A stretch of 64,000 nt of DNA from Torpedo marmorata (taxonomy: Eukaryota), in contig OZ360252.1 of NCBI GenBank assembly GCA_977017645.1, forward strand, positions 18,104,001-18,168,000, in the 5' to 3' direction. This document shows positions 34,604-43,700 of this stretch, piece after piece. The notes beneath the pieces are model-generated. The model searched no databases and was not told the origin of the DNA. It saw only the letters and a program-made list of their open reading frames with translations. Position 1 is the first letter of the stretch, and each line of letters starts with the position of its first letter. Position numbers and translations under genes: made by a program.

Positions 34604-34716
34604 CTATGGAACCGGACCGTCATCTCTTGTAGGCGCTGCCAAGGCGGGGTGTGTGAACGTCTCACTGTGAGGATTATCAATGACGTTTGCCGACAACGAA
34701 ACAGGGAAATCGGGAT
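34604..34716 (-). CDS. SRCR receptor candidate last coding exon
   Basis: CTCTCTCATAG acceptor, phase 1, [41 protein letters not shown]; a GTAAGC donor follows 23 nt after the stop. Confidence 0.55.
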
Positions 34717-37700
34717 CTATGAGAGAGAATTCTGAAATATACTGTAAATAAAGTTGAATGTTGCCCCCAGGGCAAAAATAATCAAGGTCGAGGGAGAGAA
34801 AACAGGAAAGGGGCTTGAAGCCATATCATCAGCAATGATAGGTTTGAATGTTGGCAGAGGATTGAGGGGCTGAATGGCCGAAAGCAGCGCGTTCTTTCCA
34901 TGATGTCAATGATTGTGAAAGCACATTTGACACCATTACACAACGAGTATGATCAAATTTCTGACTTAGGAGGGCATTGCAACAATCGCCAGTAGGGATT
35001 TAATGCATCTCAGTGACGCGAAAGTGCCTTTTGTTGGGAGCCGGGGGCAAGACAGAGTTTATGGTCCCCACTGCCGTTCCTGTGCAGGTTTAACATGCAG
35101 ATTGACAGCCCAGGAGGAACACAAAATATTAATTAGACACGTGGATCATACTGTACTATCAAATGTGTCCGAGTAAGTCATGAAACCGCACCTTAATCAA
35201 AAAAATGGTAATGCTTTGCTTCACAGACAACTGTTTAATGCGAGTCTAACTGAGACAGAACTCACCAATGGTGTTGGTATCACCGTTGACAACCGTCAGC
35301 ATGAGCGGATCATCAGCACCACTACCCACGTGGAACTGATAGTCTTGGGAATCAATGGTTTTGTTCTCAACGCGGTCATAGTCGGCAGGATCCCTATCTT
35401 GGAGGAAGTAAAGATTGTCAATTATAAAGCAGAGTGACATTCCTCCAAATCATTGTGGAGTAGCAAGCTATATTACGCCTGATGCAAGGATTTGTTTCTA
35501 GCGTGATGCACAGTTTGACGGAGGAAAAATGTTAATAATCGTCCTGGATCTTCACGACTGAACCGCGCAATTAGACTGCGTGCTCATTTCATATTTCAGT
35601 GCCTGTGAAGGACTCGGATTAAACAAACAATGGCCATTGTTTCGTTCCATTGCACAACTGGCTGTATTCGAGACAGTTGTTTCACATTCAAACTTGTTCA
35701 CAAGCTACTTATAACACAAACCCATTTTAAATATCGTTATATTCTCCGGTATTTCACGTCGTACAAATCTGCATAGCTTCTGATCACAAACAGATTTATA
35801 TAAAATAAGATAAAGTGGAAAGTCCGAAAAAAGTGTCAAACCATGAACACGGGAACTGTTCCCATGAGGATGTTCTGGCTCCAGAAAATCACCATCCGAA
35901 GGGTCGCTCGTGTAATATTCAATTTGATTGATGAAATCAATGGAACCAGACGCTAGAAGTCAATGAAATTGACAGTTATTGTAGAGATCATTTTGAGAAT
36001 TGAGGAAGTATTCATAAATGCTTTACTATAACCATATAACTATATACCAATTACAGCACGGAAACAGGCCATTAGGCCCTTCCAGTCCGCACCGAACCAA
36101 ACATTCCTATCTAGTCCCACCTACCTGCACCCTGCCCATAACCCTCCACTTCCTTCTCATCCATATACTTGTCCAACTTTTTCTTAAATAATAAAATTGA
36201 CTCTGCCCCCACTATTTCTCCCGGAAGCTCATTCCACACCGCTACCACTCTCTGAGTAAAGAAGTTCCCCCTCATGTTACCTCTAAACCTCTGCCCCTTA
36301 ACTCTTAGCTCATGTCCTCTTGTTTCAATCTCTCCTATTCTTAATGGAAATAGTTTATCCACATCCACTCTGTCTATCCCTTTCATAATTTTAAATACCT
36401 CTATCAAATCCCCTCTCAACCTTCAACGCTCCAAAGAATAAAGAACTAATATGCTCAATCTCTCCTTGTACTCTAGATTCGTAAACCCAGGTAACATTCT
36501 GGTAAACCTTCTCTGCATTCTCTCCACTTTGTTTATATCCTTCCTATAATTTGGCGACCATAACAGCACACAGAAGTCTAAATTATGCCGCACCAACGCC
36601 TTATATAATCTCAACATCACTTCCCAACTCCTATATTCTATGCAATTATTGATAAAGGCCAGCATACTAAAAGCCTTCCTCACCACCCTATTAACATGAG
36701 TTTCCACCTTCAGGGAACGATGCACCGTTATTCCTAAATCTTTCTGCTCTTCTGTATTCATCAATGCTCTCCCATTTACTACATATGTCCTGTTCTGATT
36801 CTTCTTACCAAAATGAAGCACCTCACACTTATCAGCATTAAACTCCATCTGCCATTTTTCAGCCCACTTTTCTAAGCAGCCCAAATCCCTCTGTAATCCT
36901 TGAAAACCTTCTTCATTATCCACTATTCCACCTATCTTAGTATCATCTGCATATTTACTAATCCAGTTTACCACCCCATCATCTAGATCATTGATATATA
37001 TAACGAACAACAATGGGCCCAATACAGATCCCTGAGGCACACCGCTGGTCACCGGCCTCCAACCTGACAGACAATTATCCACTACCACTCTCTGGCCTCT
37101 CCCTTCCAGCCAATGTTCAATCCATTTGACTATCTCAGAATTTATACCTAAAGACTGCACCTTCCTAACTAACCTTCCATGCGGAATTTATCGAAGGCCT
37201 TACTGAAGTCCATATAGACAACATCCACTGCGCTACCCTCATCCACATTCCTAGTCACCTCTTCAACAAATTCAATCAGATTGGTCAAACAGGACCTTCC
37301 GCTCACAAATCCGTGTTGAGAGTTCCCGATCAGACCCTGTCTATGAAAATGATGGTATCGTGATATGCCACAGACACCTTTGCGGAATACCATTCAATGC
37401 AACAACACGGCTTACTCATGAAGTGGATGATACTATTTTAGGGAAGAAGCTCTTTCCGGGCATTTAAACCCGTTAAGCACAATTACACTCAATTAAGCAA
37501 CAACCACATGCGTTTTGGAGTGTGAGACGAAACCGGATCACCGGGGAAAACCCACACAAAGTACGGGGAGAACCTGCAAACTCCTACACACAGCTCCGGA
37601 TGCGAATCCCGGTCGCGAAGCTAAACGTGCCAATTTGCAGATAATTTTCATCCATTTGATTGTTACGACAGGCCGGCTGAGCAGAAGAAAACATTCGGAA

Positions 37701-40700: not shown

Positions 40701-43700
40701 ATCGTTGGAGCCAGCAGCCGACAAAACGGGATCTGTGGATATTATGGAATCGACATTTCAGAGACTTCATTCAATCAGGATTGAGAAAACGAAATTACGA
40801 CATTAAGGAATCGGTTGAAGAGGTGGTTGAAACTGTACAAAGACACGTACCGGAACAAAAGACAACGACGTCTTCCTTATGGTCACAGTCGTGTTGGCGG
40901 AGTTGTGAGGAGCGACAGCTGGAGAGAAGGGATTCACTTCCTGTGCATTTCACTTCATCCAACCAGATGTCACCGTCGCCGTGGGCAATGATCGATTCTC
41001 CTGGAATCCAACGAGCAGGGCCACAGCCCAACTGTCTGCAGACGACATCAGCGTCGGTAAGATCCCAGGAGTCGTCACACACCGTGCCCGAACCATTATT
41101 CCACCGTATCTCCAACCTTCCGGAGCAACGGGTGCTGCCGCCAACCAGCTGTAGTGACAGTTCTGAGAAGAGCAGGTATAAAATTATATAAATGAATTTC
41201 AAGTGAGTGACAGGTGAAATACATTTCACGTAACATTGCGTGCACTGAATGACCTGCAATTTCCGATTCTGATTCTTCATGGCAATCCTTTCCCTTATCG
41301 GATCCCTCCGGCACTTTGGTTTCTGTTGACAAGAGGAACATGGTGACGGATTTGTACATCTATTTTTAAAATGTCAGCCGCTGTTTCATGGCTCCCTGAT
41401 TTTACCTTCACAAGCAACACCTGCATCGTACTTGTGCTTACAGTCATGTTCTCCCCAAGGGGCTGATTGACATTGCCAGAGGGTCGACTCGTGCGATGTA
41501 CAGACCAGATCATCGAGCCATATTTTCCCAGATCCTTGTCCGTATTCCAAGGCATCGACTTCAAATGATTTGCGGGGTCCACATTTTAGTTGTTTACAAA
41601 CCACATCTGCAGCGTTCGGGTTGAATCCATCGGAGCACACTGTTCCCCATGTCCCATTGTACAGCACTTCCACTCTTCCTTCACATCGATGCCGTCCGTT
41701 CTTCAGTCGCATTTCTTTGTGCTCTATCAACGACAGAAGTTATGTACATTTTAACGCAATGTTTTCAAACCACCACCAGGAAAGATCTGTTTTGACTTAC
41801 AGAAAAACAAGAAATAGATACACATAATCTTGAAAACACATGAGGAAGAGGCTTATGGTGCGGAATATTAAAATGCTAAAAAGACGGGAGCGCGAATTGG
41901 CTGAATGTGGAGGTTTGGGGGAATGAGTGTCGGGAATGTGCATGATTGTTCTGTCTTTGACCGTGATGCGGTGGTGAAAACATTGACGATGATCAATGGC
42001 TTATTGTCAGGGAATCGCCGTTCAGAAAGTTGGATCCGCTGTGCAGCATTTTCAAGGATTTGTCTCCTTCATGAGTCGCTCCGCTCCTCTGCAGAGCGCA
42101 CCAACCAGTTCCGTCTGACCGTAGGTTGTGCTACAACTGCAGGAGACGCGACACCATTGCTTTCGCACATTCTCCAGAGCATCAAACAGTCCTTGCAGGT
42201 GAAAGGAGGATTCACCTCAACTTGTTCCAATCATTACATTGCATTCTATGCATCAGAATTTTCCACTCTATATTTATTAAACTATTCCGAAGCACCTTCA
42301 TTCAGTCGGAAAGAGTTGTCCTGAGCCTATCGACCACTTCAAATAACTCTCCCACATTGAATCCTTGATTTCCATCTGTGAGGCTCCGTCGTGATGCATG
42401 GAAGATGAACACAACCATGCGGAACAACACCATATCTTCCATCTGGACACGGCACACCCTTCCGGATTCGATAACATTGTCACAATTTTTAAGCAAATCA
42501 AATTTTAATCCAATTACAATTTTCCATATTTGTCTTTTATCATGTCTGCTCAGTTGTTTGCTCTCTTAATTTAACCTGTCGGGATCACCCGCAGCAACAT
42601 ATTACACAAACACAGAAAAATAATCTGAACCGCAAAATTACGCCAACTGCCACATTCATGGCCAGCCTATCCGAAATATTCATTTCGTTCTTCCAAACCC
42701 ACTCCCAGATTTTATTCACTCCTTTCCGGCAGTGGCTCTGACCCGAAACGTGAAATCAGTCTCTTTCCAAAATTTATTCTTGCACTGTTTGTTAATTAAT
42801 TGGTAGCAATCCGGAATGCTGTCGGTAAAGCACCTCGCAAACAAACACGGGAAAGAAAATGGCAAATCCGCTTTATAAAGAATGGTCGTGCTTCAAACAT
42901 AATTGAATTAAGTGGCCTGTGCTCCCCCTGCCCTTTCAAACCTTTGTTTCTAACTAACAAACCCTGATAGAACTCACAAAGGAACAGCAATGGAAGATGC
43001 ACCAGACAATGGTCAATTCAAAAATTGTTTTATTAAACTATTAATAACATAACACATCTTACTTATCTGTAAACTTAACTTTAACTTAAAGCCCACTATG
43101 CGCATATGTAAGTGTGTGTGTGTTAAAGTCCAAACTATTTTAGTTTAAACTTGAATCTGAAAAAGTCAATTTTAAAGTCCAGTTTCCAACTTTCTGTTGA
43201 ACTTTAGGATCCCTTTAAATTGTGATTCAGAAGTAAATATAAAGCAAGAATGGAGCATTCGATTTCTTTCAAACTCACAAGTCTTTTGACGAGTTGTCTT
43301 TCAGGGATAGTCTTCATACGAGTGTGTTCGCAAGTTTCCCCTATCTTGTTAGGGTTACAGAACTATGATCTTCACGATGATTTCTTTCTTAATATGGTGT
43401 AACATATGATGATATCTTCCTTTCTTAGAAACAATTTGAAAGTGGTCTTACTTATTTTAAGAGCCACTTATTATGTATTTCCTATGATACGGATAATACA
43501 CAGAGACAGCACCTCTATCCATTCAGAGATCATTGCTCAAACTTAATTCTGTCTTTTCAGAATGTCAATGTTCTTCAGACTTTAATCTTTGTCTTTCCAA
43601 AGTGTCAGAGTTTCTGCAGTGTGGTTCAGTCTGTTTCAAAATGTCGCTCTCCTTTCATTATATATTTCTAACATCATGTGACATTACATCACCACAGTTT

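Follow-up and report, generated by a model that had tools for sequence, protein, structure and literature searches.

The stretch of DNA described here (the window) comprises 64,000 nt of the genome of the ray Torpedo marmorata (assembly GCA_977017645.1, contig OZ360252.1, positions 18,104,001–18,168,000), and the coordinates given below are window positions unless a contig or locus is named. [quoted passage not shown] All the receptor exons lie on the minus strand, are bounded by AG and GT and have phase 1, and together they make a chain of 16 exons and 984 codons for a signal peptide, seven SRCR domains, a stalk, a transmembrane (TM) segment and a tail (Table 1). At the level of sequence, splice signals and homology confirm this chain as real, and a chance origin is ruled out because it could be mapped in 53 paralogous units and corresponds, one exon after another, to annotated proteins of sharks, skates and rays.

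All six SRCR exons inside the window match the Pfam family PF00530 and the seventh exon matches SRCR structures; with domains of 100–110 aa, six to eight Cys and a single phase-1 exon for each, they have the features of group B of the SRCR superfamily. An initial annotation of this locus had described a 12-aa stalk, a TM segment and an acidic tail of about 160 aa spread over four exons, all of which are present, in phase 1 and with AG/GT boundaries. The exons that it listed stand, and what it overlooked is the 69-nt interdomain exon between SRCR domains 6 and 7. The tail is 161 aa long, with 27 D/E against 13 K/R and six Tyr, and its exons bear FYQAIYEEI, IEYYT, DYDRV and DYQF. For the last tail exon we favour the acceptor at 34716 as more likely than the alternative one: the downstream AG is kept in 24 of 26 units and the upstream AG in 22 of 26, and three units have two extra bases between the two. 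A short segment that precedes the last tail exon in sharks was searched for at the window locus and not found, and a tail exon used alone as homolog query gave no scoring match.

Table 1. Receptor exons and neighbouring features, in window positions.
Feature	Position	Strand	Remarks
Signal-peptide exon	73116–73071	-	beyond window end
Linker exon, 33 nt	64822–64790	-	beyond window end; AG/GT in 30/30 loci examined
SRCR domain 1 (S0)	63856–64000 in window, exon runs to 64170	-	six Cys, without C2 and C7; hypervariable
SRCR domain 2 (A)	55513–55818	-	b/c-type
SRCR domain 3 (B)	54534–54848	-	b-type; top match human CD163 domain 5, 110 bits vs 79.6 for the next
SRCR domain 4 (C)	53477–53791	-	without C2 and C7; n by position
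SRCR domain 5 (D)	45225–45539	-	d-type; last base T in window copy only
SRCR domain 6 (E)	41406–41723	-	e by position
Interdomain exon, 69 nt	41254–41322	-	AG/GT in 53/53 units; homologous spacer in shark proteins
SRCR domain 7 (F)	40851–41162	-	d'-type, membrane-proximal
Stalk exon, 36 nt (12 codons)	40697–40732	-	
TM exon	39094–39204	-	intramembrane Glu and basic stop-transfer stretch
Tail exon T1	38859–38966	-	FYQAIYEEI, tandem YQAI-YEEI
Tail exon T2	35842–35952	-	IEYYT
Tail exon T3	35266–35397	-	DYDRV and DYQF; DYDD in sharks
Tail exon T4, to stop codon	34604–34716	-	alternative in-frame acceptor 34731
Class A seven-transmembrane (7TM) receptor open frame	27808–28725	+	Pfam 7tm_1; no in-frame start codon, likely second exon
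Inverted decayed TM-T1-T2-T3 copy	18138–20932	+	about 80% identical; stop after TM helix, T1 frame broken, IEYYT lost

Matches to the first tail exon are found 52 times on the minus strand and 28 times on the plus strand (80 of 81 candidates), all of them on contig C75 between 14.18 and 19.05 Mb, those on the plus strand being inverted, decayed TM-tail fragments. The same contig has 53 TM-bearing minus-strand units and 75 distal-domain (S0) exons, all these counts being lower bounds, and the whole array falls within C75:14.18–19.07 Mb, about 4.9 Mb. Lesions (a stop, a frameshift, a lost splice site or a missing exon) affect 16 of the 53 units over exons D to T3, and 17 of the 25 units with all eight surveyed exons in view are clean; the array is under birth-and-death evolution. 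Among database proteins those of a skate are nearest (81–84% on exon C), and next come proteins from sawshark, sevengill shark, horn shark and devil rays. Three paralogs (L051, L084, and L083) have in common a stop where the stalk ends, which would leave a full seven-domain secreted form if decay were escaped, and two others (L063 and L079) end just after the TM as tailless forms; all of these are possibly decoys, or simply pseudogenes. There is also an extra S0-A-B-C block upstream of one gene (C75:18.25–18.27 Mb), and elsewhere six S0 exons follow one another at intervals of about 7 kb (C75:17.19–17.22 Mb). With 75 distal exons for 53 tails, some genes may therefore carry several distal domains or 11 domains. 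A lone S0-like exon with 52% identity lies outside the array (C2:1568896–1569201, plus strand).

The window copy differs from its relatives at a single critical base. Its exon D ends in T and exon E starts with AG, so that the junction codon is TAG, a stop at position 549 of 985 codons. A genome-wide pattern search recovered 54 copies of the exon D end, with G as the last base in 53 and T in the window copy only (the unit survey counted exon D in 35 of the 53 units, the other 18 being covered by this search). In the proteins of sharks, skates and rays, E follows D immediately, with Glu where the two meet, and therefore there is no hidden exon that would rescue the junction. The change is young, since the two closest paralogs, 98.3–98.6% identical over 1128 shared exon bases, both keep G, and the remaining exons and splice sites of the window copy are intact. 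This copy is thus likely to be a null or truncated allele. By established rules, nonsense-mediated decay would follow from a stop so far upstream; the transcript would be lost in this way or, on escape, would yield a secreted five-domain fragment, and skipping of exon D would retain the frame and give a six-domain membrane form. The initial annotation had taken the window copy for a signalling receptor, a reading made doubtful by the stop, which it could not reveal because its interval begins at exon E and has the D-E junction as its 5' boundary.

Across the array, the most distal domain is also the most diverse one. We read 75 S0 exons, 74 of them intact and 71 of standard length, which represent 66 distinct sequences and 65 distinct proteins with a mean identity of 80%. 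As pairwise averages, the ratio of nonsynonymous to synonymous differences (pN/pS) is 1.61 in S0 (95% confidence interval 1.18–2.19) compared to 0.29 in D, 0.60 in E and 0.27 in F. In the SRCR8 domain of SALSA the exposed residues that bridge ligands through cations (sites 2 and 3) are D1019, D1020, D1058, D1059, N1081, and E1086, and the buried structural cation site 1 comprises D1023 and D1026 (PMC7043408). Mapped by residue offsets and a gap-free alignment, i.e., in sequence register only, these correspond to S0 positions 30, 31, 69, 70, 92, and 97 (exposed) and 34 and 37 (buried); a single-sequence fold of S0 was unusable (predicted local distance difference test 35.7). The 24 hypervariable positions among the 104 of S0 include each of the six exposed ones (hypergeometric p 9e-5), position 34 is Asp in 64 of the 66 sequences and position 37 in all 66, and D, E and F retain acidic residues at the first two cation motifs. 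Read on this register, the data show S0 to be under diversifying selection at the SRCR ligand face. With its exposed sites hypervariable, the distal domain therefore has a variable surface in place of the canonical calcium face, and S0 has also lost the C2–C7 bond that adjoins this face. Cattle WC1, too, varies most in its distal domain, the part proposed to bind ligand (PMC3511184, PMC2681482, PMC5949365).

In the tails of the paralogs, FYQ[AT]I is found in 52 of 52, YEEI in 48 of 52 (YEDI in one more) and IEYYT in 41 of 42. The Tyr of DYDR is kept in 39 of 40 units, as DYDRA in 36, and DYDRV occurs in the window copy only (1/40); at the last motif the Tyr of DYQF is present in 8 of 40 units and 32 read DCQF. 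In 12 aligned shark and ray homologs, selected through IYEEI, we found the Tyr upstream of YEEI in 12/12, YY in 10/10 and DY in 10/10 of the rows with residues, and the DYQF Tyr in 0/11. The tyrosines of FYQ, YEEI, IEYYT, and DYD are conserved. Thus YEEI, IEYYT and DYD, as given in the initial annotation, and with them the Tyr four residues before YEEI, hold among paralogs and across species, and DYQF and the V of DYDRV do not hold as conserved motifs; unconserved Tyr motifs had been named there as a finding that would speak against it, and this applies in part, to these two. The TM and tail exons have pN/pS values among paralogs of 1.11, 1.30, 1.05, and 0.68, with every confidence interval spanning 1. 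Since these values are near 1 with wide intervals, conservation among paralogs counts for little and the conservation of the tyrosines across species is the stronger evidence.

The same type of motif is widespread beyond the cartilaginous fishes. Y-x-[ED]-[ILV] is present after the TM in 21 of 24 chondrichthyan segments and in 50 of 72 others, including those of bichir, teleosts and birds, and Y-(Q/E)-(D/C/E)-(I/L), to which YEEI and YEDI conform, has been described for the WC1 and CD163c-like proteins of mammals, platypus and chicken, nearly all of which have it (PMC2906472), so the tail is not a speciality of cartilaginous fish. The tail tyrosines of WC1 are required (PMC8356672; PMC2906472), that of its YEEL being needed for potentiation (PMC2906472); they are phosphorylated upon co-crosslinking with the T-cell receptor (TCR), and Fyn, Blk and Lyn are able to phosphorylate WC1 (PMC8356672). 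The affinity of pYEEI for all eight Src-family SH2 domains is 310–675 nM (PMC5417323). A reading of YQAI-YEEI as an immunoreceptor tyrosine-based activation motif (ITAM) was rejected on spacing, and one as an inhibitory motif (ITIM) on the lack of an (I/V/L/S)xYxx(L/V) context at either tyrosine, taking both consensus patterns as they are commonly given. An ESM Atlas search with the tail gave a best score of 0.80, which is a lead only.

The membrane segment carries Glu in 53 of 53 paralogs. Glu or Asp is found within the TM in 22 of 24 chondrichthyan segments versus 1 of 72 others, a case where the model is doubtful. Charged TM residues are known to drive the assembly of receptors with their adaptors, acidic on CD3, FcR-gamma and DAP12 and basic on the TCR and activating receptors. 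The Glu in our receptors likely marks an intramembrane partner or self-association. A homodimer prediction for the TM segment of one homolog (P0118) gave no answer (score 0.05) and is counted neither for nor against.

Domain trees were built with 18 database proteins, a quick one with 172 domains and a subset of 55 domains with SH-aLRT/UFBoot supports. In the latter, the second-from-membrane domains of gull, stork, bichir and loach form one group with exon E (96/97), and the fourth-from-membrane domains of bird, bichir and teleost receptors form another with exon C (93.5/89). Exon B falls with the b-type domains of birds (85.7/95), both A and B lie inside a b/c group (92/83) and exon F joins the last domains of bichir and loach (90/84), with birds joining only in the quick tree, at 81. 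The quick tree recovers the same groups at 97, 96, 94 (the b/c group) and 81, and no window domain joined the DMBT1- or SSC5D-labelled rows in it. Domains A, B, C, E, and F are therefore grouped with TM-YEEI receptors, and D and S0 are without supported grouping with bird, bichir or teleost receptor domains; S0 groups with chondrichthyan first domains only (99; 96.8/100), the deeper nodes being unsupported. Compared to human CD163, A and B match domain 5 (b) and D matches domain 7 (d). The mammalian CD163 types describe only part of the chain because C, F, and S0 prefer domain 7 (F narrowly over domain 9) and E prefers domain 2. CD5 and CD6 rank below CD163 in structure matches, and the domains in the tree are from other proteins than these two.

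The second and seventh Cys are missing from exon C, as they are from bovine domain n (PMC2906472), and with letters given by position the domain order would read S0-b-b-n-d-e-d'. The chain thus has the n domain before d-e-d' of CD163c-alpha/SCART receptors, with the tail on the TM exon plus four exons rather than on two exons, and it does not match the n-less WC1 order a-b-c-d-e-d-b-c-d-e-d'. As in WC1, there is a multigene array with diversity focused in the distal domain (the survey covered S0, D, E, and F of the SRCR domains). The trees and the exon chain agree with what the initial annotation proposed, a cartilaginous-fish family of SRCR receptors with a TM and a tail bearing tyrosines, related to WC1/CD163c (SCART) and distinct from DMBT1, and the per-domain phylogeny that it had called for places the proximal domains with bird, bichir and teleost YEEI receptors, not with DMBT1. 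We consider it likely that the receptor works like WC1/SCART, and we file it as a member of the wider CD163/WC1 family rather than as WC1 since S0 lacks a supported grouping with domain a. Of five markers for synteny with the mammalian loci, none had a match on C75: the EMG1 and FucU families gave no match at all, and the calsyntenin, APOBEC and Shadoo matches are on other contigs. Among the 80 longest of 427 candidate frames in 200 kb of flank, the left neighbour is a beta-adrenergic receptor.

Among known systems, the chicken-type hybrids of WC1 and CD163c-alpha (a ... c-n-d-e-d'; PMC2906472) appear closest to the domain order of the ray. These hybrids and their bird, bichir and teleost relatives (P0115, P0116, P0119, P0089, P0063, and P0015) share with it a colinear b/c-n-d-e-spacer-d' cassette, the TM, a Y-E-E-I tail followed by YDD-type motifs, and multigene expansion, whereas the ray family differs in its acidic TM residue, the extra Tyr four residues before YEEI, the IEYYT exon, the two b-type domains with no c-type one, and a first domain without supported grouping with theirs. 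Ruminant WC1 has in common with it a tandem multigene array, variable distal and conserved proximal domains, YEE[IL] (PMC2681482, PMC3511184, PMC2906472), single exons for the SRCR, interdomain and TM parts and a tail on four or more exons; however, the ray receptor has seven domains instead of 6 or 11, includes an n-type domain that is absent from WC1, and belongs to an array with about four times the gene number of cattle WC1 (13 genes). CD163c-alpha/SCART1 and SCART2 (m-l-b-c-n-d-e-d', YEDI) share the n-type six-Cys domain followed by d-e-d' and the Y-(Q/E)-(D/C/E)-(I/L) motif, but in mammals they number one or two genes, and their tail lies on two exons (PMC2906472). CD163A (M130) is the best solved structural relative, with B resembling its domain 5 (b) and D its domain 7 (d), although it is a single-gene haptoglobin-haemoglobin receptor with an unrelated tail (YREM). 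Finally, DMBT1-like or M130-like models of sharks, skates and rays (P0118, P0121, P0122, P0124, P0113, P0100, and P0132) agree with it in signal peptide, linker, order of the seven domains, TM Glu and tail and are, by these sequence features, the orthologous family under automatic names; the sharks have DYDD[VA]E where the ray reads DYDR, and the extra short segment before the last exon.

Signalling, Src binding and expression in gamma-delta T cells are inferred for the family. The distal domain of each paralog would bind a different microbial surface ligand, and clustering with an antigen receptor or an activating receptor would let Src-family kinases phosphorylate YQAI-YEEI and the downstream tyrosines. 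The resulting pYEEI would retain the kinase via its SH2 domain and activation would be amplified, and inside the membrane the TM Glu would pair either with a partner chain's basic residue or with a second copy of the receptor. A bolder version, which we hold to be distinctly doubtful, is a large germline repertoire of WC1 type in cartilaginous fish with an antigen-site-like distal domain that docks on the TCR or on an activating receptor with a basic TM via Glu, as the CD3 chains do. If this were true, WC1-type co-reception would date from the origin of jawed-vertebrate gamma-delta T cells and membrane docking would have been lost in bony vertebrates.

Several observations weigh against a WC1/SCART-type co-receptor array with a null copy in the window. 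The letters n, e, and d' were assigned by position in bird domains taken from PMC2906472, and the tree has no named WC1 or SCART sequences; the grouping of S0 leaves its membership of WC1 domain a without support; exon E matches human CD163 domain 2 (116 bits) and not domain 8, the e type (61 bits); and no window domain has CD163 c as its best match. The pN/pS averages were taken without a tree and ignore gene conversion, without purifying selection on the TM and tail exons the conservation within the array may reflect youth only, and the 12 aligned homologs already contained IYEEI by choice. As for the window copy, no excess of decay was found in it (six nonsynonymous and two synonymous private changes, rank 10 of 53; Fisher p 0.59 for lesioned versus other genes), so that decay after the stop is not evident, and the T at the end of exon D may be a single-base assembly error or a heterozygous allele.

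The last point leads to the possibility, somewhat unlikely in our judgment, that the window copy is functional, the T being an assembly error or confined to one allele, or exon D being skipped to give a six-domain membrane receptor. As all exons have phase 1, splicing from C to E keeps the frame, and the intactness of every other exon and splice site and the lack of excess decay would fit. There are also bovine WC1 cDNAs without single SRCR domains or without the TM (PMC2681482), and white-shark database isoforms without E and the spacer (P0127) or without stalk and TM (P0132). However, neither the donor GT of exon D nor its +3 to +5 bases differ from the other copies, a reading by eye of the alternative donors and acceptors close by yields a stop or a frameshift in each case, and nonsense lesions are common in an array where 16 of 53 units are lesioned over the exons examined.

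It is unlikely that these genes encode myeloid scavenger or uptake receptors in the manner of CD163, in which the Yxx-hydrophobic motifs would serve endocytic sorting rather than kinase docking. YQAI and YEEI do fit the YxxPhi sorting pattern as generally understood, the best solved relatives are CD163 chains and D, E, and F keep the acidic cation-site residues. Nevertheless, the acidic residues at +1 and +2 are kept from sharks to birds and would be needed for SH2 binding and not for sorting, a diversifying multigene array suits WC1 better than the single-copy CD163A, and the CD163A tail, which carries YREM, is dissimilar to those of WC1 and CD163c (PMC2906472).

We give still less weight to inhibitory or tuning receptors like CD5 and CD6, with tandem phosphotyrosines that recruit phosphatases or adaptors and dampen activation. 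The several conserved tail tyrosines could serve such a role, and ligation of WC1 by itself does not activate and can lead to G0 arrest (PMC8356672), but the tail has neither ITIM context nor ITAM spacing and YEEI is a Src-family SH2 ligand. It is very unlikely, in turn, that the array was amplified in a largely neutral way, or that the co-duplicated 7TM receptor drove the amplification and carried the SRCR genes along. The 7TM gene is amplified within the repeat unit, with 46 close copies on C75, and the 16 lesioned units, the 28 decayed inverted fragments and the tail pN/pS near 1 would agree with it; yet S0 has pN/pS above 1, 74 of 75 exons intact and its variation on the ligand face, D and F are under purifying selection, and the architecture is kept in sharks, skates and rays. 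A secreted DMBT1 orthologue (SRCR domains, then CUB and ZP) is highly improbable even though most of the nearest database proteins are named DMBT1-like and S0 scores about equally (114–116 bits) against barb DMBT1 domains and teleost receptor first domains, given that the SRCR block continues into stalk, TM and tail exons, which refutes it unless transcripts stop before the stalk, that chondrichthyan relatives have only SRCR families in Pfam, with no CUB or ZP, and that the proximal domains group with YEEI receptors.

Other elements surround the receptor gene. The 7TM frame is co-amplified with the SRCR gene as its neighbor and not as part of the receptor; its 46 copies, in or beside the array, are 84–100% identical, nine of them with stops, its next relatives elsewhere have about 61% identity, and it has no solved relative at E 1e-8. 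The inverted TM-tail fragments could give antisense transcripts against the receptor family. The intron between T1 and T2 contains a reverse-transcriptase fragment of a retroelement (36423–37187, minus strand), which is why this intron is longer in the window copy. In the S0-A intron (about 59200–62700) a segment of about 1.8 kb is repeated directly and almost identically, as either a real tandem duplication or an assembly overlap. The right flank (L166, L167) has frames matching retroviral protease, envelope and reverse-transcriptase families, a decayed retroelement, and about 55 kb left of the array there is an intact single-exon beta-adrenergic receptor frame (L155:3221–4522, plus strand; C75:14.12 Mb), with beta-1, then beta-2 and beta-3, as best solved matches.

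The kind of receptor is already known, and the proteins are in databases as DMBT1-like or M130-like. The present analysis extends the cassette to the root of jawed vertebrates and adds an array with about four times the gene number of cattle WC1, the selection at the ligand face and the lineage-specific acid in the TM. We found no paper on a chondrichthyan WC1/SCART-like family in a search that went without supplements and most subscription papers, so a prior description is possible. The window copy itself matters little, as likely a young nonsense allele in a birth-and-death array. The family, by contrast, provides markers for shark and ray single-cell data, where its genes sit under a DMBT1-like label, and its TM acid predicts a membrane partner. 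In their defining paper, receptors of the WC1/CD163c type were traced to birds and platypus (PMC2906472); the same cassette and tail in sharks and rays place the family at the root of the jawed vertebrates, and an array of 53 genes with selection at the ligand face suggests that a ray has evolved a WC1-like innate repertoire anew.

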